Source of the DNA: a virus
Taxonomy: Duplodnaviria > Caudoviricetes
Virus record (IMG/VR): IMGVR_UViG_3300028394_000089
Coordinates: 1 to 57,191 of that record
Strand: one strand, 5' to 3'
DNA length: 57,191 nt
Below the pieces are notes generated by a model. It had not been told where the DNA came from. It made no database searches and saw nothing but the letters and a program-made list of their open reading frames with translations. The position numbers and the translations under genes are program-made. Positions 491-49,408 of this stretch are shown in pieces; positions within the stretch are counted from its first letter, which is position 1, and each line of letters begins with the position of its first letter.

Positions 491-1419
491 ATATAGTTTG
501 TTATTATTTGACCTATAATAGGCCGCAAATTTTAAAAGAGTCTTTTGCTTCTAGCCTTAATAACACAGAAATAACTCCAAAAGAAATTTGGATTATAGAT
601 GATGGTTCTGAAGCTCAATTAAAATCTACTTTATTAGATTATAGTAATGAATACTCTCCCAAAGGAACTCCTATTAATTTATTAATTCATGGTAATAATT
701 ATGGAATTGGATATTCTTTTGAACGTTTATATAATTTAATTAGGCAAAATGATGATCTTGATATAGCGTGTATTTTAGAATCAGATTATATTTGGCGAAA
801 AGATTGGCTAAAAGATGTTATAGATGTTTTTGATGCTTCTCCAAATACGCTTGCTATAGCTGGCACTGATCATCCAGACATGTATGATAGATCAAAAACT
901 CATTCGACATTTCCAGATATTATGAGGGAATGTTTTGGTGAAGATTTAAAATCTCGTAACGATTTATATATACCGTTTGATTTACAAACAAATTCTGGCA
1001 AAATTCAAGTACAAGGGGTTAGTAATTCTTGTGGATGTACCATAATACATTGGAAAAGATTAAAAAAGGTAATAAAAAATCTTGAAGATAGTAAAAAAAT
1101 ACCATATAATGATTTCTGGAATAGAATGGATAGAGCGTTTAATAAAGGTATTTCTCATGATACTAGAAAAAATGCATCAGATGGATGGATGAGCAGTACA
1201 ATTTCAAAATATGGAGAAATGTATCTAGAATTAGAAAATTTAGATTTAAAAACTAATTTTCCGTTTTTAAGTATTTGCGATTATAGTATATCAGAACATA
1301 TATGTGGTGGTGGAGTAAATGGTCTAATTGTTCCAGAAGGTCGTACATTTGTACACTCACCGAAATGGGATAATAAATTTTTATTAGAAAATCCAAGAAA
1401 AAATAATTATGAACAATAA
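487..1419 (+). CDS. GT-A fold (GT2-like) glycosyltransferase
   Basis: LTYNRP, IWIIDDGS, NYGIG and acidic ESD motif. Confidence 0.8.
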   Translation: MNIVCYYLTYNRPQILKESFASSLNNTEITPKEIWIIDDGSEAQLKSTLLDYSNEYSPKGTPINLLIHGNNYGIGYSFERLYNLIRQNDDLDIACILESDYIWRKDWLKDVIDVFDASPNTLAIAGTDHPDMYDRSKTHSTFPDIMRECFGEDLKSRNDLYIPFDLQTNSGKIQVQGVSNSCGCTIIHWKRLKKVIKNLEDSKKIPYNDFWNRMDRAFNKGISHDTRKNASDGWMSSTISKYGEMYLELENLDLKTNFPFLSICDYSISEHICGGGVNGLIVPEGRTFVHSPKWDNKFLLENPRKNNYEQ

Positions 1420-2779
1420 AAAACAAAAAATTGTTATTACTGGTGGTTTGGGTTATATTGGTACTAAATTGTGCGAAATTTATTCTGGTGAAACTCGATA
1501 TAAAAATATTATAGTAACTGATAATAAATTTGTTGCTGAAAGAGTCAAACAGTTACGTGATTGGGGGTTTGAATTTATCCAAACTAGTATTCTTAACGAA
1601 TCAGAACTCAAAAATATTTTAAGTGATGCTGATATTGTGCATCATTTAGCTGGAATTACAGATGTTGCTTATACTAAAACAGAATCTAATCCAGAAAAAG
1701 ATAAATCTATTATTGATACAGCGATTCAAGGAACATTAAATGTTATTAATTCTATTCCTGATACATGTAAATTGATATTTCCATCAACTCATGTTGTATA
1801 CGAAGGATTTAAAAATACAATGTTGGATATTAGTGAAGATATAGAGACCACAGCTGTTTTAACTTATTCTAAATGTAAAGTTCAAAACGAAAATGATATT
1901 AAAAATTCTAATAAAAGTTATGTTATTTTGAGATTAGGGTCTGTATATGGATATTGTGAATCAGACACAATGAGGATTAATATCATGCCGAATCTTTTTT
2001 CTAAAATGGCATCTCTAAATACTCCAATTAAAATGTTTTCAGGAGGTGTTCAGAAAAAAAGTCTTGTTGCCCTTACCGATGTAGCAAGATGTTTTAAATT
2101 CATGGCAGAATCTGATATTAAAAATGAAACATTTCATTTATCTAATGAGAACTCAAGCGTTAAAGAAGTCGCAGAAATTTGTAAAAAAATTAAACCAGAA
2201 ACGCGATTAATAAGTACAAATGACGAAGTTCCAAATTTGGGATATACTTTATCAAATAAAAAACTTTTATCAACTGGATTTAAATTTCTTTATAATTTAG
2301 AAGGATCTATTAAAGACATGATTAGTTTTTGGTCTAAAAAAACTATTAATACAAATTTAGAATATATTATCCGTGGAGAAAAAGAATTTATAGATGAACG
2401 TGGAAAAATTAGTAATTATGAACTTACAGAACCAATTAATCTTATAGGATATATTGAATCAAAAGCCCATACAACTCGAGCTAATCACTACCATCCGATT
2501 CAAGAACAAAAATGTTTATTAATTAAAGGCAAATATGTTAGCGTAGTTAAAGATTTATCAGTTTTAAACTCAGAGATCGAAATTCGTATTATTAATGAGG
2601 GAGATATAGCCGTAATTAAACCAAATGTAGCTCATACAATGGTATTTTTGGAAGATTCAATCTTTTTAAATTTAGTACGTGGAGAACGAGAACATGAAAA
2701 TTATGGCATAACACATACTATTCCATATATTTTAGTTGATAATGATTTAAGATTAAAATTAATTCAACAATATTCTTAA
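1409..2779 (+). CDS. NAD-dependent epimerase/dehydratase fused to a C-terminal cupin (sugar isomerase-like) domain
   Basis: ITGGLGYIG, HLAG, YxxxK (YSKCK); C-terminal RANHYH...PNVAH cupin motif. Confidence 0.85.
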   Translation: MNNKKQKIVITGGLGYIGTKLCEIYSGETRYKNIIVTDNKFVAERVKQLRDWGFEFIQTSILNESELKNILSDADIVHHLAGITDVAYTKTESNPEKDKSIIDTAIQGTLNVINSIPDTCKLIFPSTHVVYEGFKNTMLDISEDIETTAVLTYSKCKVQNENDIKNSNKSYVILRLGSVYGYCESDTMRINIMPNLFSKMASLNTPIKMFSGGVQKKSLVALTDVARCFKFMAESDIKNETFHLSNENSSVKEVAEICKKIKPETRLISTNDEVPNLGYTLSNKKLLSTGFKFLYNLEGSIKDMISFWSKKTINTNLEYIIRGEKEFIDERGKISNYELTEPINLIGYIESKAHTTRANHYHPIQEQKCLLIKGKYVSVVKDLSVLNSEIEIRIINEGDIAVIKPNVAHTMVFLEDSIFLNLVRGEREHENYGITHTIPYILVDNDLRLKLIQQYS

Positions 2780-2780
2780 T

Positions 2781-3497
2781 ATGCAAACAGTACATAATTA
2801 TCATTACGAAGATTTTTTTAATCTATTTAAACATTATATTAAAGAAGGAGATTGGTGTTTAGATATCGGGGCAAATAATGGAAATTCATGCGCTCAAATC
2901 TTAAAATTAATAGGAAATAATGGAAAATTAATATGTTTTGAACCAATTCCCGAATTTGTTCAAATATTAACTAATCGATTTAAAGATGATAAAAATATTG
3001 ATATTCATAAATACGCTTGTGACATAGAATATGCAAAAAAAGAATTTGATTATGGTATACATAATATAAATGGTAATGGAGGATTATGGAATGGCTATGA
3101 GCATGAACGTGGAAATAGGCCACCAATTCATATTGAAGTTGAATGTGTTAATACATCAGATTTTTTGCTTAAAAACTATTCTTTAGAAGATCTTAAAAAT
3201 AATTTAAAATTTATTAAAATTGATTGCGAAGGACATGATTATGCTGTAATTGAATCGCTTAAACCGTTAATAAATATTATTAAACCAATTATTTTTTGTG
3301 AATGGTGGTTTTTTGATAGCGCTATTAAACTATTTAATATTGCTGAAGAAATTAACTATTCAGCCTATAGATCTGATAACCCTAATATTTTAGCAAGTAA
3401 AGAGCATATTGGTAAAGAGTTAAATGTTAATATCTTAGGTACTGAAGCTCAATACCAACAACAGAGCCATGATTTAATATTGATTCCAAATTTATGA
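2781..3497 (+). CDS. FkbM family methyltransferase
   Basis: LDIGANNG, FEP, FIKIDCEG. Confidence 0.88.
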   Translation: MQTVHNYHYEDFFNLFKHYIKEGDWCLDIGANNGNSCAQILKLIGNNGKLICFEPIPEFVQILTNRFKDDKNIDIHKYACDIEYAKKEFDYGIHNINGNGGLWNGYEHERGNRPPIHIEVECVNTSDFLLKNYSLEDLKNNLKFIKIDCEGHDYAVIESLKPLINIIKPIIFCEWWFFDSAIKLFNIAEEINYSAYRSDNPNILASKEHIGKELNVNILGTEAQYQQQSHDLILIPNL

Positions 3498-4765
3498 ATA
3501 TAAAACATCGAAAAACTTGTAGAATTTGTGCGAATCCTAATTTAAAAGAAATTATTGATTTAGGGTATCAAAATTTACAAGGGTCTTTTTTAAAAGAGGG
3601 TCGGGGAAGAACATCACTTCGAAAAATTCCGAATAAGATTGTAAGATGTGATGTTTCTAAAAATGAAAACGCTTGTGGTTTAGTTCAAACATTAAATACT
3701 ATCCCACCTAAAATTATGTATTCTAATTATTGGTATGAATCAAATATTAGTAAAACAATGTGTGACCATTTAAAATTAGTTGTTGATAAATCTTTAAATT
3801 TTATTCCATCTCCAAAAAGGGTTCTTGATATTGCAATGAATGATGGAACTTTACTTTTAAATTATAATGATGGTATTGAACTTTTTGGCGTAGATCCTTC
3901 AGATATTACAAAAAAAGCGAAAGAAAAACATCCGCAAATTAAAATTTACAATGATCTTTTTCCATGTCAAGAAATGCAGAAAGATAGTCTAGAAGGTACT
4001 TTTGATATTATTACATCTATTGCATGTTTTTATGATTTAGATGACCCTTTAGATTTTTGTTTAAATGTCGAAAGACTTTTGTCTCCTAAAGGCATATGGA
4101 TTTTTGAAATGGCCTATTTAATAGATATTCTTGAAAATCTTTGTTATGATACTTTTTGTAGTGAACATTTATCACATTATCACCTTGCCCCTATTGAATA
4201 TCTTTTAAATCAGGCTGGTCTTCGATTAGTATTCGCAGAAACAAATGATATTAATGGTGGTAGCCTTTGTTGTTATGCGGTTAAAAATAATAATTTTGAT
4301 TATGATAATGAAGAAAGATCTATGGCCTTAATGGAATTAAGATTTAAAGAGTTTGATATGGCGCTAGATGAAGATAAAATTTATGAAGATTTTAAAAATA
4401 GAGTGGTAGCGCAAAAATATGAATTAGTTAAATTTGTTAATGAAGAAGTGCTTAAAAAGAAAAAAACTTTACATTTATATGGAGCTTCAACTAAAGTAAA
4501 TACTTTATTAGGATACTGCTTTGGAGAAGATATTAATAAATATATTCAATATGCGGCAGAACGCAGTCCAGAAAAATATGGAGCTGAAACCTTAAGCGGT
4601 ATAAAAATTATTTCAGAAAGTGAAAGTCGAGCTATGAATCCAGATTATTATTTAGTTGGTCCTTGGCATTTTAAAAAGGAAATTTTACAAAGAGAAGTTG
4701 ATGCAGTTAATAGTGGAATTAAATTTATATTTCCATTACCGAAATTTTCAATAGAGGGGAAATAA
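3494..4765 (+). CDS. NDP-hexose C-methyltransferase (Zn-binding N-terminus, class I SAM)
   Basis: CRIC...CGLVQ, VLDIAMNDG, EHLSHY, NGGS, YGASTK, FIFPLP. Confidence 0.88.
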   Translation: MNIKHRKTCRICANPNLKEIIDLGYQNLQGSFLKEGRGRTSLRKIPNKIVRCDVSKNENACGLVQTLNTIPPKIMYSNYWYESNISKTMCDHLKLVVDKSLNFIPSPKRVLDIAMNDGTLLLNYNDGIELFGVDPSDITKKAKEKHPQIKIYNDLFPCQEMQKDSLEGTFDIITSIACFYDLDDPLDFCLNVERLLSPKGIWIFEMAYLIDILENLCYDTFCSEHLSHYHLAPIEYLLNQAGLRLVFAETNDINGGSLCCYAVKNNNFDYDNEERSMALMELRFKEFDMALDEDKIYEDFKNRVVAQKYELVKFVNEEVLKKKKTLHLYGASTKVNTLLGYCFGEDINKYIQYAAERSPEKYGAETLSGIKIISESESRAMNPDYYLVGPWHFKKEILQREVDAVNSGIKFIFPLPKFSIEGK

Positions 4766-36671: not shown

Positions 36672-37172
36672 ATGTTTTTTTATTTACAATGTATAGTTGG
36701 AATCATAATGTTTTTTATGTTAGTTTTTATGAGAGGGTCCGTTGAAAATCCAATTTATAGTATATTAAAATTAGGCAATACAAAATTAGATAAAATAGTT
36801 ACAGAATTAAGATTTTATATACCGTGGATATTATTTATGAGCATGAATAATCAATTTATGGATATTAAAATTACTTCCATTTCTAATAAAAGTACTTATA
36901 CATGGTATTTACGTAAAGATAAACGGGTGGGTAATTATAAATTTAATAATGATCTAACATCTCTAACTTTAACTTTTTATTACTTATGGTTTCAAAATTT
37001 TTTAAATAATTTTATAGAGTTAGAAATACAAAAATTTTATAAAAATAAAGATGAAATTTGTAATTTTATTAAAATTGAAAAACATTGGTTTAACTCTTTT
37101 AATGAAGAAAGTTTATCTATTCGAAATAATCCAATAAGAATAGAACAAATATCGGAATGGAAATATGATTAG
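36672..37172 (+). CDS. membrane-anchored partner of the HTTM protein (SdpA/DUF5819-like candidate)
   Basis: N-terminal TM, W.LF motif, overlaps the HTTM gene. Confidence 0.45.
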   Translation: MFFYLQCIVGIIMFFMLVFMRGSVENPIYSILKLGNTKLDKIVTELRFYIPWILFMSMNNQFMDIKITSISNKSTYTWYLRKDKRVGNYKFNNDLTSLTLTFYYLWFQNFLNNFIELEIQKFYKNKDEICNFIKIEKHWFNSFNEESLSIRNNPIRIEQISEWKYD

Positions 37173-38025
37173 TTTTTTAGAAATTTTAAATTTTTTATTT
37201 AATTATGAAATATACTCATCTTTCGCCTGTGTTTTGAGAATTATTTCAACGGGTTATTTATTATTTTGTTTATTTTGGATTAGAAAAGACGCTTGGAATT
37301 TTTCGTCTCCAAACGGACCATTCGGAAATAATGACTATAAAAATTTTGCTAAGCAATTTAATTTCCAATTATCATTATTTAGTATTTTTAATGATAGATT
37401 TCCTGCTCAAAAATTTATTTTTATAAGTTTTTATATTTCTGGACTCTTTTCTTTAATTGGATTTTTTACAAATATATCTCTGTTTGTATTTTTAATAATG
37501 TTAATGTCAATACAAAATAGAATTTTACCTATTATTTATAGTGCGGCAGATAGTATTTCAAGAATATTAATCATATGTTTAGCTATAACTGACTGTGGAT
37601 CACAATATTCGCTTGATAATATATTAGGATTATCTTCTAATCAAAATATCATTAATGGAACTGGGATTAGGGTTTTACAAATTAGTATTTGTATGATTTA
37701 TTTTTGGTCTTCTGTTTATAAATTAAGAGATACTTACTGGTTAGATGGTGAAACTATTAAAAATGCTATTGCTACACCGATTTGGGGTACGAGATGGTGT
37801 TTAAAATTTTGGCAGAAAAATATTGTTTCTAAATCTATAACATGGTCTGTATTGATATTTGAATATTTTGCCCCAGCCCTATTCTTCATTAAAGAAACTA
37901 GAAATTTTGCTATTATATATGCAATATTGATGCATGTTTGTATTACAATATTTATGAGAATTGGATATTTTGGTCCTATAATGATAATATCTGTATTAAG
38001 TTTTTGTAACGATTTTTTTAAATGA
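37165..38025 (+). CDS. HTTM-domain membrane protein (vitamin-K-dependent carboxylase/SdpB-like)
   Basis: LRI, LIG..T, R, SLD, Q...IY..S..KL...W.DG, E, H....M.IG.F; multiple TMs. Confidence 0.8.
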   Translation: MISFLEILNFLFNYEIYSSFACVLRIISTGYLLFCLFWIRKDAWNFSSPNGPFGNNDYKNFAKQFNFQLSLFSIFNDRFPAQKFIFISFYISGLFSLIGFFTNISLFVFLIMLMSIQNRILPIIYSAADSISRILIICLAITDCGSQYSLDNILGLSSNQNIINGTGIRVLQISICMIYFWSSVYKLRDTYWLDGETIKNAIATPIWGTRWCLKFWQKNIVSKSITWSVLIFEYFAPALFFIKETRNFAIIYAILMHVCITIFMRIGYFGPIMIISVLSFCNDFFK

Positions 38026-38603
38026 AAATATTAATATTAGGTGGAACATTATTCGTCGGAAAACATTTTGCCAAAGTTCTTAAAGATAAAGGCTATGATA
38101 TTACTTTAGCTAATCGGGGCATTTCTGGAGAAGTCAATATCAAAATAGACAGGAATAACATTGATACATGCAAAAATTTAAATAACAATTATTACGATAT
38201 TATAATAGATTTTTCATGCTATAATTTGGAGCAATTAATTAATACTCTTAATTATGTAAAATTTGATAAATATATATTTATATCGACTAGTGGTGTAGAT
38301 TTCCTACCCTTTCATAATGTCGCGCCAGAACATTACGAAATGGCTATGTATATTTTTAATAAAAAGAAATGTGAAGATTATATAGTAAAAAATATTTCTA
38401 ATCATACAATAATTCGCCCATGTTATATTGTTGGTGAAGGGGACTATACAAATCGTTTTTATAAAAATGGAAATAAGTATTATTGGAATGATGGAAAAGA
38501 ATTAACTTTTTATATTGAAGTAGGTAAGTTTAGTAGTATAATTTTTAATAGTTTTAAAAATAAAGGAGCTAATATTATTAGTCCCTGTAAAGAATTGAAT
38601 TAA
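38022..38603 (+). CDS. short NAD-dependent epimerase/reductase (atypical SDR)
   Basis: ILGGTLFVG, NRG, YIFIST, Y...K..CE, IRP..I.G..D. Confidence 0.82.
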   Translation: MKILILGGTLFVGKHFAKVLKDKGYDITLANRGISGEVNIKIDRNNIDTCKNLNNNYYDIIIDFSCYNLEQLINTLNYVKFDKYIFISTSGVDFLPFHNVAPEHYEMAMYIFNKKKCEDYIVKNISNHTIIRPCYIVGEGDYTNRFYKNGNKYYWNDGKELTFYIEVGKFSSIIFNSFKNKGANIISPCKELN

Positions 38604-38608
38604 AAAAT

Positions 38609-39199
38609 ATGAAACGTAAAGATTGTATTGGTAAAACATTTAATCATTTAACTATTTTAGAAGTGCTTCCGAATGATAAAGTAAAATGTCAATGTACTTG
38701 TGGTACATTAAAATTATTTAATTGGCGAGATATTCGTAGGGGGAGAACCAAAGGTTGTGGTTGTCGCCGCAATACACCAGAATTAAGAGCCTTAGCAAAG
38801 GAAAGGGCAATAGATCTTCAAAAGAAGGGTATATTAAAACGTGGTTATGTTGGAAAAGATGCCAAATGTCCATTTAAATATATTTTACGTACGTTAAATA
38901 AGCCAAATAGAAAACCATGTAATTTAAAAATAGAGCATTTAAAAAAAATTTGGGAAGAAAGCGGTGGAGTTTGTTCATATACAAAAATTAAATTAATTTT
39001 ACCAATTGGATCTGCAAATCCGAATCCCGCAATTTCATATAAAATGGCATCGATAGACAGGATTGATTCTTCAAAAGGGTATGAGCTTGGAAATATTCAA
39101 TACGTTAGTCGTAATATAAATTATGCGAAAGGAATCCTTACTCATCAACAGATGTTAGATTTTATGAATCTTATTAAAGAAGTGGACGTGAGGGGCTAA
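38609..39199 (+). CDS. free-standing HNH-type (homing) endonuclease
   Basis: FNHLT.L, CxCxCG...GCGC N-terminal module; C.YT, SIDRIDSSKGY..GNIQ.V...N..K nuclease module. Confidence 0.8.
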   Translation: MKRKDCIGKTFNHLTILEVLPNDKVKCQCTCGTLKLFNWRDIRRGRTKGCGCRRNTPELRALAKERAIDLQKKGILKRGYVGKDAKCPFKYILRTLNKPNRKPCNLKIEHLKKIWEESGGVCSYTKIKLILPIGSANPNPAISYKMASIDRIDSSKGYELGNIQYVSRNINYAKGILTHQQMLDFMNLIKEVDVRG

Positions 39200-39450
39200 T
39201 TTAAAAACTAATTTCTTAGTATATTCATTAAAGAATATTTAAATTGTGGACTATATCTTCATCTGATTAGTTATATCAGAGCTGGACGCTAATCTGGTTA
39301 TTAAGAGGGCTTTACCTCTCCAGTAGTCTCTGAACCTTCTAAAAATGTATTTTTAGCTTGGCTGCTGATTGGCATATCATATTTTATGATTTAGCTTTCC
39401 AGCAATTCATCCAGTTTTAATCGAAGCATCACTGCTAAGTCAACCCATTG
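39196..39450 (-). mobile_element. group I self-splicing intron (255 nt, ORF-less) in the tmRNA T-loop
   Basis: 5' exon ends in U with a U:G P1 pair (TCAACT/GGTTGA); P AATTGCTGGAAA (39407-39396), Q AATCAGCAGCC (39370-39360), R GTTCAGAGACTA (39335-39324), S AAGATATAGTCC (39259-39248); terminal G at 39196. Confidence 0.92.
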
Positions 39451-39697
39451 AGTTGAACCCCTGTCCATTTAATTTATATTAAAAGGTCTACATGTTTTAG
39501 TTTCTTTAGCATTTTAGCCACCATACGGTAACTTGGACTTTTAGGCTGCTTGGCGACACTAACCTTAGTTTTAAGTCTGCCTATAGATTATTATCGCAAA
39601 TCTACATACGGAGGATTTTTTTTGTTACATTGATATAGTCCACAATTCAATAACCTCTGCTATCAATTAACCCTTAGAGGATCTAGGTTAAAGGATC

Positions 39698-39802
39698 TTA
39701 GGCTGCTAAGAGGTACTCTTCTTCAACTTCCCCGAGGAACTCGGAGGCATTGTTGAAGATATATTCTGCTTCAGCCAAGATTGCATCAGTATTATCTTCT
39801 GC
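39698..39802 (-). other. tmRNA tag reading frame AEDNTDAILAEAEYIFNNASEFLGEVEEEYLLAA*
   Basis: GCA resume codon placed just after pk1 (inferred); open to TAA; ends in LAA. Confidence 0.85.
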
Positions 39803-39987
39803 GTTTGGTTTTTAATCGATTTTTTACGAGGCCATCGATTAACCTCGACATGCGCTTTTAATTTCAACTAAATGTCGAAACCAGTACACGCCCAAAATTT
39901 CAAAGAACTAACTAATGATAAGCTTTATTACACTGTTTGTCAATAAAAAGATTGATATTTAAATAAAAAAAATATAACATTAATATT

Positions 39988-40527
39988 ATGAAAGAACCTT
40001 TTACAATTAATTTAAAAAAATATAATGACTCGCGTGGATATTTTGTGGAAAAATTTAATAAAGAAATCTATAGGCAAGTTACTGATTCTGAAAATGAAAC
40101 TGTTTTACAAAATTGTCCGCAATGGGTGCAAGAAAATTATAGCGTCTCACAAAAAAATGTTCTGCGCGGATTACATTATCAATTAGATCAACCACAGGCA
40201 AAATTAATACATTGTATGTATGGTAAAATAATGGATGTTATTGTAGATTTAAGACTGTTTTCGCCCAATTTCGGCAAACACGAAAAATATTATTTAGATG
40301 ATAGTTCTATTTTATATGTTCCGATTGGATTCGCCCATGCTTTTGTTAGCTTGTCTGATCATACAATTGTTGAATATAAATGTTCAAATTTTTATTTACA
40401 AAAAGACTCTTACGTGTTAGCGTGGAATGATAAAAATTTAAATATAGATTGGGGAATTGATAACCCAATCCTTTCAGAACAAGATTCTAATGCTTTAAGT
40501 CTTGCAGATTGCCCCAAATTTGATTAA
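39988..40527 (+). CDS. rmlC: dTDP-4-dehydrorhamnose 3,5-epimerase
   Basis: [34 protein letters not shown]. Confidence 0.95.
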
Positions 40528-40538
40528 TATTTAGTATT

Positions 40539-40612
40539 GGAACTGTAGCTCAACTGGTTAGAGCGCCGCCCTGTCACGGCGGAGGTTGCGGGTTCGAGCC
40601 CCGTCAGTTCCG
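40539..40612 (+). tRNA. tRNA-Asp(GTC)
   Basis: Canonical cloverleaf, CCGCC-CTGTCAC-GGCGG. Confidence 0.95.
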
Positions 40613-40616
40613 TGAC

Positions 40617-40690
40617 AGAGATGTAGCTCAACTGGTTAGAGCACCGCTTTGATAAGGCGGGGGTTGTAGGTTCAAGTCCTACCATCTCTA
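40617..40690 (+). tRNA. tRNA-Ile(GAT)
   Basis: AGAGATG/CATCTCT, CCGCT-TTGATAA-GGCGG. Confidence 0.93.
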
Positions 40691-40730
40691 TTAATTTTTT
40701 AATTTAAAATTCAAACATATATAATACATA

Positions 40731-40875: not shown

Positions 40876-41694
40876 ATGTTTTCTGCGATTTTCGCCTCGA
40901 TGAATAGAGAAAAAGCATTAGAGGCTACTTTATCCTCTTGGGCAAAAATAAATAAAATTAAAGATTTAGTAATTGTAGATTGGAGTTCTTCGGAGCCTTT
41001 GATAGAAAATCAAATTATCAAAGAACAAATAAACGAATATGGGAATATTAAAATCATTCGGGTCGAAAACCAAAAATATTTTTATCGCTGTTTGGCGTGG
41101 AATCTTGCTTTCCAAAATACTGATCCAGAAAATAAAATTCTAATTAAATTGGATGCAGATCATTATAATACGAGCACTTCGCAACTTCATGGTAGAGATC
41201 ACAGTTCTTGGTTGGATAATTTATCATTAACGGCGGATAAAGAGTTGAAAAACTGTTTTTATGCGGGAAACCTTGACTTGGATTATAAACTGTATGGTTT
41301 TCTTATCGTAAACAAAAAACACTTTAAAGAAGGTTATAATGAAAATATAGATGCTATTTGGGGATTTGAAGATTCAGACCTTTACCATAGAATACAAAAA
41401 AAATATAATATAAATATAAACAAATCGATTGGCTCTAATTCTATTTTTCATATTCCTCATTCCGAAGAAATGAGAATTAAAAATCTTAAATCTCCAATCA
41501 AATATTTATGGAAAGACGAAATAAATTTAGGACCGAATTTTAATGAAAAATACCAGTTTACATATATAGGAAAAGACGGAAAAAGATTACAAACCAGAAC
41601 GCAATGTAAAAATATTAACGAGTGGACTCCTGCTAAATATAGAGTATTAGAAGACTCTCCGATTTATAAAAGGGTTGAATTGATAGAACAATGA
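40876..41694 (+). CDS. GT2/GT7-like glycosyltransferase
   Basis: MNR...L, IVDWSS, KLDAD, GYNE....WGFEDSD. Confidence 0.85.
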   Translation: MFSAIFASMNREKALEATLSSWAKINKIKDLVIVDWSSSEPLIENQIIKEQINEYGNIKIIRVENQKYFYRCLAWNLAFQNTDPENKILIKLDADHYNTSTSQLHGRDHSSWLDNLSLTADKELKNCFYAGNLDLDYKLYGFLIVNKKHFKEGYNENIDAIWGFEDSDLYHRIQKKYNININKSIGSNSIFHIPHSEEMRIKNLKSPIKYLWKDEINLGPNFNEKYQFTYIGKDGKRLQTRTQCKNINEWTPAKYRVLEDSPIYKRVELIEQ

Positions 41695-49321: not shown

Positions 49322-49408
49322 GGAAGCGTACTCAAGCGGTTTACGAGAGAAATTTACTAAATTTCCGAGGTCTAAAAGCCTCCGTGGGTTCGAATCCCAC
49401 CGCTTCCT
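49322..49408 (+). tRNA. tRNA-Ser(ACT)
   Basis: GGAAGCG/CGCTTCC, GAAAT-TTACTAA-ATTTC, long variable arm GAGG/CCTC, GTGGG-TTCGAAT-CCCAC. Confidence 0.85.

Follow-up and report, generated by a model that had tools for sequence, protein, structure and literature searches.

A probable phage-encoded tmRNA gene interrupted in its T-loop by a group I intron

A transfer-messenger RNA (tmRNA) gene of the intron form was reportedly first described in Clostridium botulinum. Here we analyzed a 57,191-bp viral record from IMG/VR (IMGVR_UViG_3300028394_000089, referred to as the window), on whose minus strand a one-piece tmRNA gene appears to be split in the T-loop by a group I intron. In bacteria this gene form is widespread: the available text of the tmRNA database paper counts 883 unique genes of the intron form from 21 bacterial phyla, with four subsites of interruption that all lie in the T-loop (PMC11915505). 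The first-pass annotation of the window had stated that T-loop introns are known in a few bacterial tmRNAs; the site is correct, but "a few" does not agree with these numbers.

Phages also encode tmRNAs. Examples in the available text of earlier work are the mycobacteriophage Bxz1 group and Bacillus phage G (PMC4131195); tmRNA genes, both one-piece and two-piece, were found in 402 of 18,146 phage genomes (PMC9004378), and tmRNAs also occur in huge phages (PMC7162821), some of which have their own SmpB. Such surveys use ARAGORN, a program blind to interrupted genes (PMC9004378, PMC7162821, PMC12291355, as far as their available text describes). One-piece and two-piece phage tmRNAs are described, and introns are not mentioned, in the available text of three of these papers (PMC4131195, PMC9004378, PMC7162821). 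Our literature search turned up no published intron-form tmRNA gene from a phage; for the 79 phage tmRNAs of the database, the forms are given in the supplement only (PMC11915505).

A search of the window with Infernal placed a tmRNA and a group I intron on the minus strand, abutting each other. The tmRNA model RF00023 matched 39449-39885(-) with 84 bits (gathering score 47, E 3.7e-31) and thus exceeded its gathering score although the intron displaces the 3' strands. The intron model RF00028 (Intron_gpI) matched 39226-39460(-) with 81.5 bits (gathering score 50, E 3.3e-19, model positions 1-253). The gene consists of the following parts:

39451..39893, minus strand: tmRNA exon 1, 443 nt, with the 5' acceptor strand, D-loop analogue, pseudoknot PK1, tag frame, pseudoknot body, 5' half of the T-stem and the whole 7-nt T-loop
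39887..39893, minus strand: 5' acceptor strand GGGCGUG, read directly, containing G3 of the G3:U70 alanine identity pair
39814..39847, minus strand: pseudoknot PK1, CGAGG/CCUCG and AAUCGAU/AUCGAUU, placed in the PK1 columns of RF00023 at high posterior probability
39698..39802, minus strand: tag reading frame downstream of PK1, from translation; resume codon GCA (39802), 34 amino acids (aa) AEDNTDAILAEAEYIFNNASEFLGEVEEEYLLAA, stop TAA (39700-39698)
39196..39450, minus strand: group I intron (RF00028) with P7.1/P7.2 and no open reading frame (ORF), 255 nt, inserted after T-loop nucleotide 7
39440..39445, minus strand: internal guide sequence GGUUGA, which forms P1 as its 3' strand opposite T-loop UCAACU (39456-39451), with U-1:G among the pairs
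39183..39195, minus strand: tmRNA exon 2, 13 nt, read directly; T-stem 3' strand CCCCU, acceptor 3' strand CACGUCC, discriminator A

When 39450-39196 is removed, AGGGG (39462-39458), UUCAACU (39457-39451) and CCCCU (39195-39191) form a T-arm with a UUCRANU-type loop, and GGGCGUG (39893-39887) pairs with CACGUCC (39190-39184) in a 7-bp acceptor stem that contains G3:U70. Neither structure forms before the intron is removed. Directly after the terminal G of the intron, the 13-nt exon 2 is complementary to 12 positions of exon 1; this, like the contiguous homologues described below, goes beyond chance. The discriminator is A39183 and is followed by CTTC, hence CCA is not encoded. In line with the splice-site rules, U-1 (39451) can pair with intron G6 (39445), and the final intron base is a G (39196). 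The first-pass annotation had proposed the same gene, exon and intron limits, a perfect T-arm and an alanine-type acceptor stem (G3:U, A discriminator, no CCA) upon intron removal, the group I elements (P/Q/R/S) with U:G splice pair and terminal G, and trans-translation that would depend on splicing. Direct reading together with Infernal reproduced the limits exactly, the RF00028 score and the sequence itself confirmed the intron elements, and the dependence of a functional tRNA-like domain on intron removal follows from a T-arm and an acceptor stem that only the ligated exons form.

The same interrupted gene was found in a second phage (L009), whose 166,536-bp source record has direct terminal repeats and is rated 100% complete. 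In this relative, the tmRNA scored 85.4 bits and the intron 83.3 bits with Infernal. The two loci share a block of 82% similarity over 1,390 columns, which extends from the promoter to the end of a neighboring endonuclease-like ORF (window 39976-38609), while the flanks differ. Within the gene, conservation between L009 and the window is distributed as follows:

5' domain with PK1: 84 of 88 columns identical
Tag frame: 77 of 105 columns identical
Pseudoknot body: 120 of 203 columns identical
3' body with T-arm half: 46 of 49 columns identical
Intron: 239 of 257 columns identical
Exon 2: 13 of 13 positions identical

As a surrogate for an RF00023 test of the spliced RNA, we used natural intron-less viral homologues. 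Scanning viral contigs for the predicted ligated T-arm yielded at least 119 loci (L022-L140). Among the 119 listed, ARAGORN called a tmRNA in 85 (49 permuted, 36 standard), and 11 showed BLAST similarity to exon 1. Nine related loci among the matches listed aligned to RF00023 over the full length with 125.9-152.7 bits. Exon 1 is 78-84% identical to intron-less viral tmRNAs, with 78% over all 443 nt in L031 and 84% over both ends in L139, L090 and L061. All seven aligned intron-less homologues are contiguous through ...GGGGTTCRACT-CCCCTCAC..., the point at which the window has 255 and L009 257 extra bases; the MAFFT alignment left a 1-nt ambiguity at the boundary, which was resolved by the U-1 and terminal-G rules. 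L139 has, without interruption, exactly the T-arm that ligation would produce in the window. At acceptor pair 4:69, the seven intron-less relatives have G:C where the window and L009 have C:G, a compensatory change which ties the 5' end of exon 1 to exon 2 over the intervening intron. A scan of viral contigs for the ligated junction of the window itself, with the CACGTCC acceptor, gave no match.

Seven introns were aligned over their core, namely those of the window, L009, a third viral locus (L011), two crAss-like phages from GenBank, a crAss-like contig from IMG/VR, and phage LR756501 (735 kb). From this alignment, RNAalifold recovered P1, P2, P3, P4-P6 and P7.1/P7.2, with compensatory changes in 24 of 50 pairs. 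P7 was added by hand as a pseudoknot for a pairing test, in which 97.3% of the cells were standard pairs compared to 33-44% when the partners were slid by 1-3 columns. Double changes were seen in 24 of 49 pairs, and none of 500 shuffles reached the observed values; the tested structure was partly derived from the same alignment by RNAalifold, which biases these numbers in its favor. P7 is invariant across the seven introns and hence uninformative on covariation. The U:G splice pair is kept in six of the seven introns, and L009 retains the terminal G behind a different base. At one P1 pair (columns 22:34, T-loop nucleotide 4 versus guide), the five other introns have G:C where the window and L009 have A:U, indicating that exon T-loop and intron guide covary and that the intron is fitted to its exon. 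The T-loop site and the exact boundaries, as originally drawn, are therefore supported by Infernal, by the seven intron-less homologues and by covariation.

Considering these features, the following route to a functional RNA can be proposed. The minus strand would be transcribed from a sigma-70-like promoter:

39915..39943, minus strand: sigma-70-like promoter, TTGACA-17 nt-TATCAT, agreeing with the consensus at 11 of 12 positions and lying some 22 nt upstream of where the mature RNA begins

The 255-nt intron, putatively of group IA type, would then fold, its guide sequence pairing with the T-loop (P1, U-1:G), and guanosine-initiated self-splicing would ligate ...GGGGUUCAACU to CCCCUCACGUCCA. 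Ligation alone would create the T-arm and an acceptor stem of 7 bp that includes G3:U70. Host RNase P would trim the leader, and a CCA-adding enzyme would supply the CCA end. Alanyl-tRNA synthetase would charge the RNA, and host SmpB would bring it to stalled ribosomes, where translation would resume at GCA and add the 34-aa acidic tag with an LLAA end of the protease-targeting type. The promoter TTGACA is kept in L009; since 6 promoter-like sites were observed in the region against 4.8 expected from shuffles, the promoter call is weak alone. The use of a CCA-adding enzyme and of host SmpB is suggested by the tRNA genes of the window, 9 of 14 of which lack an encoded CCA, and by the failure to find an SmpB gene in the phage records.

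The tag encoded in the window is acidic, ends in EEEYLLAA before the stop, and is with 34 aa much longer than the 10 aa that the available text of the database paper gives as the most frequent tag length (PMC11915505). The corresponding L009 tag is ADNTDSILAEAEYIFNNADQFVGAEEEYLMAA. Tags of 32-34 aa are found in nine family members; the motif LLAEAEYIFNNADEFL...LLAA is present in eight of them, and the tag of L031 is divergent but of similar length. Three different stops (TAA, TAG, TGA) close the frame in the family. Between the window and L040, the tags differ at 8, 6 and 21 sites in codon positions 1, 2 and 3, respectively, and a comparison with L009 gave 15 identical, 9 synonymous and 8 non-synonymous codons of 32. 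Indels in the family tags are in-frame, and the peptide motif is conserved. The third-position bias, the in-frame indels and the conserved motif indicate that the tag frame evolves like translated sequence.

A tag of this kind raises the question of whether rescue is the main task of the RNA. The RNA could be made and spliced and serve mainly something other than generic rescue, with the acidic tag directing proteins to a phage-specific fate, or with the RNA competing with host tmRNA for SmpB and thereby reprogramming host quality control. We regard this as unlikely, though less so than the other alternatives considered below. It would fit the peptide-level conservation of the motif in eight of nine family tags despite heavy synonymous change, the lack of a detected SmpB gene in the phage records, and the inhibition of tmRNA by a molecule consisting of the tRNA-like domain only, which is reported in the available text of PMC4131195. 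In addition, 32 of the 85 ARAGORN-called viral tmRNAs sharing the T-arm, among the matches listed, have tags of at least 25 aa, against the 10 aa that are commonest in the database. However, the endings LLAA and LMAA resemble ordinary degradation tags, and the tag of L031, though similar in length, is divergent. Several distinct long-tag families recur among the listed T-arm loci, for instance AKDIDTAANNIVAFSRVLTREFARTSELATA (followed by a stop).

Transcription was assessed in three metatranscriptome runs and one DNA run, all available as contigs, which cannot show ends or levels; parts without RNA cover were not counted as evidence of absence. RNA contigs from the three metatranscriptome runs cover only 39480-39889, within exon 1, and one 151-nt contig is identical over 39739-39889. 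The flanking coding sequences (39000-39183 and 39988-40100) have no RNA contig and are covered by the DNA run. Together, these data hint at a stable RNA that contains exon 1. RNA pieces on the intron (39291-39371, run X22) were only about 90% alike with unlike ends and were read as introns of other organisms. Contigs of the RNA runs end at 39884-39889, close to the predicted mature 5' end at 39893 without reaching it, and one of them runs on into what we take to be sequencing adapter, suggesting that RNA fragments end near 39884-39889.

Several observations speak against an intact phage tmRNA gene that is spliced and accompanied by its own mobility gene. No contig joining exon 1 to exon 2 was found in the four runs (three RNA, one DNA), and the RNA contigs stop short of the T-arm. 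ARAGORN reported no tmRNA in the native or in-silico spliced genes of the window and L009, even with CCA appended or thresholds lowered to as little as 50%; its only calls were spurious permuted ones on the other strand, which were discarded. CCA is encoded by most intron-less relatives and not by the window gene. An SmpB gene was found in none of the three viral records searched (the window, the complete L009 record and the L011 record), no intrinsic terminator was found, and the P10 pairing with the 3' exon amounts to at most 1 bp by eye. For the neighboring endonuclease-like ORF (38609-39199), no Pfam family reached the cut-off, the PDB sequence search gave no matches, and its motif reads DR in place of what we take to be the DH of classic HNH enzymes.

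The ARAGORN result could be traced further. The program also misses the intron-less L031, L139, L090, L061, L109 and L040, which score 133-153 bits with RF00023, are 435-451 nt long and have tags of 32-34 aa. In turn, splicing L011 in silico at the homologous site led to a tmRNA call with exact ends, and unspliced L011 gave none. The miss is therefore a trait of the tmRNA subfamily and not of the splice model. As the first-pass annotation had anticipated, standard annotation overlooks the gene, at least in the form of ARAGORN. We infer that the tmRNA precursor is spliced, judging from its sequence, and we estimate a probability of roughly 85% that the gene is a phage-encoded one-piece tmRNA of the intron form.

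The missing junction contig, the loss of CCA relative to the intron-less relatives and the failure of ARAGORN on the spliced form could also be expected of a decaying relic, that is, of a phage tmRNA gene in which an intron landed, splices inefficiently, and leaves an RNA that no longer works in trans-translation. This is very improbable, because two diverged phages have kept exon 2 (13/13), the 5' domain (84/88) and the core of the intron alike even as the body has drifted, the coding-type constraint is kept in the tag frame (the 15, 9 and 8 of 32 codons relative to L009), all core helices of the intron are retained with covariation, and exon 1 RNA is present at high word depth in the RNA libraries.

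That the tmRNA is host DNA, joined by an assembly chimera or lying in a prophage flank, can practically be dismissed: bacterial tmRNA genes are often targeted by integrative elements and may thus lie at prophage ends (PMC11915505, available text), and two loci in viral contigs (L013 and L014) do look like ordinary tmRNAs with 220 bits and the tag ANDDTFALAA before the stop, but the gene studied here sits 39 kb inside a viral record of 57 kb, with phage genes on either side and 14 phage tRNAs around it, the same module is present in the complete, terminally repeated genome of L009, only 1 of 401 sampled Bacteroidota genomes matched the whole gene in BLAST, on the intron core only, and a junction-motif scan of species-representative bacterial genomes returned seven loci, none of them a tmRNA. 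Among these bacterial matches, L016 was a chance match inside a coding region and L021 a crAss-like contig inside a metagenome-assembled genome.

The window, whose completeness is about 33% according to CheckV, otherwise carries genes on the plus strand, comprising a DnaE-like polymerase and a DnaB helicase for replication, a group of genes for sugar modification, and 14 genes for tRNAs. The viral origin implied by the first-pass annotation is thus well founded in the IMG/VR record, the phage replication genes, the 14 tRNAs and the complete 166.5-kb relative with the same gene. The DnaE-like polymerase is only about 25-27% identical to those of cultured phages, and DNA of the window was found in freshwater and lake metagenomes.

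Intron-split tmRNA genes are not restricted to this family. In a broad viral scan for a T-loop followed by the J3/4-P4 motif at the right distance, 68 loci were obtained; the screen counted 69 matches including the window, and group I core motifs were present in 25. In-silico splicing resulted in an ARAGORN tmRNA across the junction in seven loci, of the standard form in L011, L160 and L186 and permuted in L149, L154, L167 and L184. Altogether, at least nine further viral loci have an intron-split tmRNA, and six of these combine circular permutation with an intron, including two crAss-like phages from GenBank. Of nine loci from the broad scan tested with Rfam, the intron was confirmed in seven. 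The first-pass annotation had called a phage example rare; it is rare but recurrent, and not unique. In a blastn search of the gene against 50,697 phage records, 63 matched, and the best 30 of these 63 all lie within query positions 427-647, essentially the intron, with none on the tmRNA body. At L011 (971-1673, minus strand), a viral tmRNA of the standard form has a T-loop intron of 703 nt, in which a LAGLIDADG-like ORF (1047-1451, plus strand) lies antisense. The database paper reports that its introns are all no longer than 700 bp (PMC11915505).

The two crAss-like phages, cr118_1 (MT774379; L001 1439-2505) and cr4_1 (NC_055893; L002 1439-2575), both Suoliviridae, have a circularly permuted two-piece tmRNA whose T-loop is split by an intron. 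The 5' half of the T-arm is followed by an intron of about 755 nt with an antisense HNH ORF, the 3' exon lies about 755 nt downstream, and a matching 5' acceptor strand, a D-loop analogue and a tag frame are found downstream of the 3' exon. Spliced in silico, both genes were called as 'Permuted' tmRNA by ARAGORN, with the tags GNNVNFFDYTLKVA (ending in one stop) and GNTSYVMDYTRLAA (ending in two stops), and the unspliced sequences gave no call. Only coding sequences and no RNA gene are annotated across both loci in their records, and no feature lies under the BLAST match (T-arm half and intron core). The permuted layout with intron is also found in the IMG/VR loci L149, L154, L167 and L184 and partly in L010, L012 and L021; intron-less permuted tmRNAs with similar tags were found in 15 viral loci among the matches listed. 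In the available text of the database paper, the table of forms lists standard, permuted and intron forms and no combined permuted-plus-intron form (PMC11915505).

The surroundings of the crAss-like tmRNA loci are dense in structured RNAs. Matches to RAGATH-9, RAGATH-20 and Hatchet ribozymes lie within 1-3 kb (L002 1-154; L012 1595-1755 and 2876-3019; L021 1566-1700 and 3141-3302; L154 1607-1735; L167 11604-11706). A second group I intron (L149 5366-5568; RF00028, 63.3 bits) is located about 1.5 kb from the tmRNA-associated one on a viral contig of about 101 kb.

Next to the tmRNA gene of the window lies an ORF on the opposite strand:

38609..39199, plus strand: endonuclease-like ORF, 196 aa, matching the PHROG endonuclease, HNH and EndoVII families (E 2e-14 to 7e-8)

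This ORF is convergent with the tmRNA gene. The final codons run antisense to exon 2 and lead to a stop codon within the intron's last 4 nt; the first-pass annotation had noted neither the ORF nor this overlap with the 3' exon. The ORF is 84% identical at the same position in L009, and no homologue was found in any other of 135 loci searched, including the 119 intron-less ones with limited flanks. Elsewhere, endonuclease ORFs lie inside the intron and antisense, LAGLIDADG-like in L011 and of the HNH type (PF01844, about 1e-9) in the crAss-like introns. Between the window ORF and the crAss-like intron ORF, no significant similarity was found (E 0.12). The window ORF probably belongs to the mobility apparatus of the intron as a homing-type endonuclease linked to it, and it may be a free-standing homing endonuclease that targets tmRNA alleles lacking the intron.

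Tentatively, these observations can be combined into a single scheme, which we consider possible without favoring it. One lineage of T-loop group I introns would move among phage tmRNA genes of both architectures, with the conserved T-arm DNA as its homing site and with antisense endonuclease genes of different classes (HNH-like and outside the intron in the window, LAGLIDADG and inside in L011, HNH and inside in the crAss-like phages). The permuted and intron-split form, unannotated in cr118_1 and cr4_1, would have arisen in this way, and the 32-34 aa acidic tag of the window family would serve a phage-specific purpose rather than plain rescue.

The region around the tmRNA module appears mosaic from the comparison of the window with L009: the window has extra DNA upstream of the module (39977-40730 and 40876-41694), with an epimerase gene, tRNA-Asp, tRNA-Ile and a glycosyltransferase gene. 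Sugar-modification genes of the window are located at 1409-2779, 3494-4765, 37165-38603, 39988-40527 and 40876-41694; among their products are NAD-dependent epimerases, a C-methyltransferase, a dTDP-4-dehydrorhamnose 3,5-epimerase, a glycosyltransferase and an HTTM-domain protein (37165-38025). At 49322-49408, ARAGORN called a tRNA-Ser with the unusual anticodon ACT, and Rfam lists no tRNA there at its gathering score.

Since ARAGORN misses every interrupted gene tested as well as the closest intron-less subfamily, phage tmRNAs are under-counted. A ribosome-rescue RNA that would have such layered needs (a ribozyme step, CCA addition by the host and host SmpB) provides a simple system for asking why phages carry tmRNA, and its conserved 34-aa tag is open to direct study. 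Because phage tmRNA genes of standard and of permuted form may have or lack the same intron at one particular nucleotide, they also provide a natural setting for studies of intron homing into a gene for an RNA.

A cyanophage psbA group I intron is said to undergo collaborative homing with a neighboring free-standing homing endonuclease. As in that case, a conserved gene of the window is interrupted by a group I intron that has no ORF, and a putative endonuclease gene lies directly beside the intron; the two are inherited together here, in the 82% block of the window and L009. Unlike in psbA, the putative target is a gene for an RNA, the ORF runs in antisense and extends over the 3' exon, and its role as an endonuclease is predicted. 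With the bacterial intron-form tmRNAs, the gene shares a group I intron in the T-loop of a one-piece gene, with U-1:G and terminal-G boundaries that rebuild the T-loop. The intron is also short (255 nt, compared to a mean of 293 nt) and lacks an endonuclease gene inside, as do about 96% of those in the available text of PMC11915505. Provided that positions 1-8 of that paper count from the 5' stem junction, a mapping of our own, insertion after loop nucleotide 7 would correspond to its position 8, there seen in Saprospiraceae only. In contrast to the bacterial genes, the window gene is phage-borne, and the endonuclease ORF lies outside the intron, antisense and overlapping the 3' exon. Like known phage tmRNAs, it is a gene of the ssrA type that is complete, includes a tag frame and comes from a large phage rich in tRNAs, with no integrase context; unlike those described in the available text, it has an intron and a 34-aa tag, and SmpB was not found in the records searched, whereas some huge phages carry SmpB. 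The form of the gene is thus already known from bacteria, and the window gene is a phage-borne addition to it, whose conserved tag is unusually long and to which an endonuclease-like ORF in antisense is linked.

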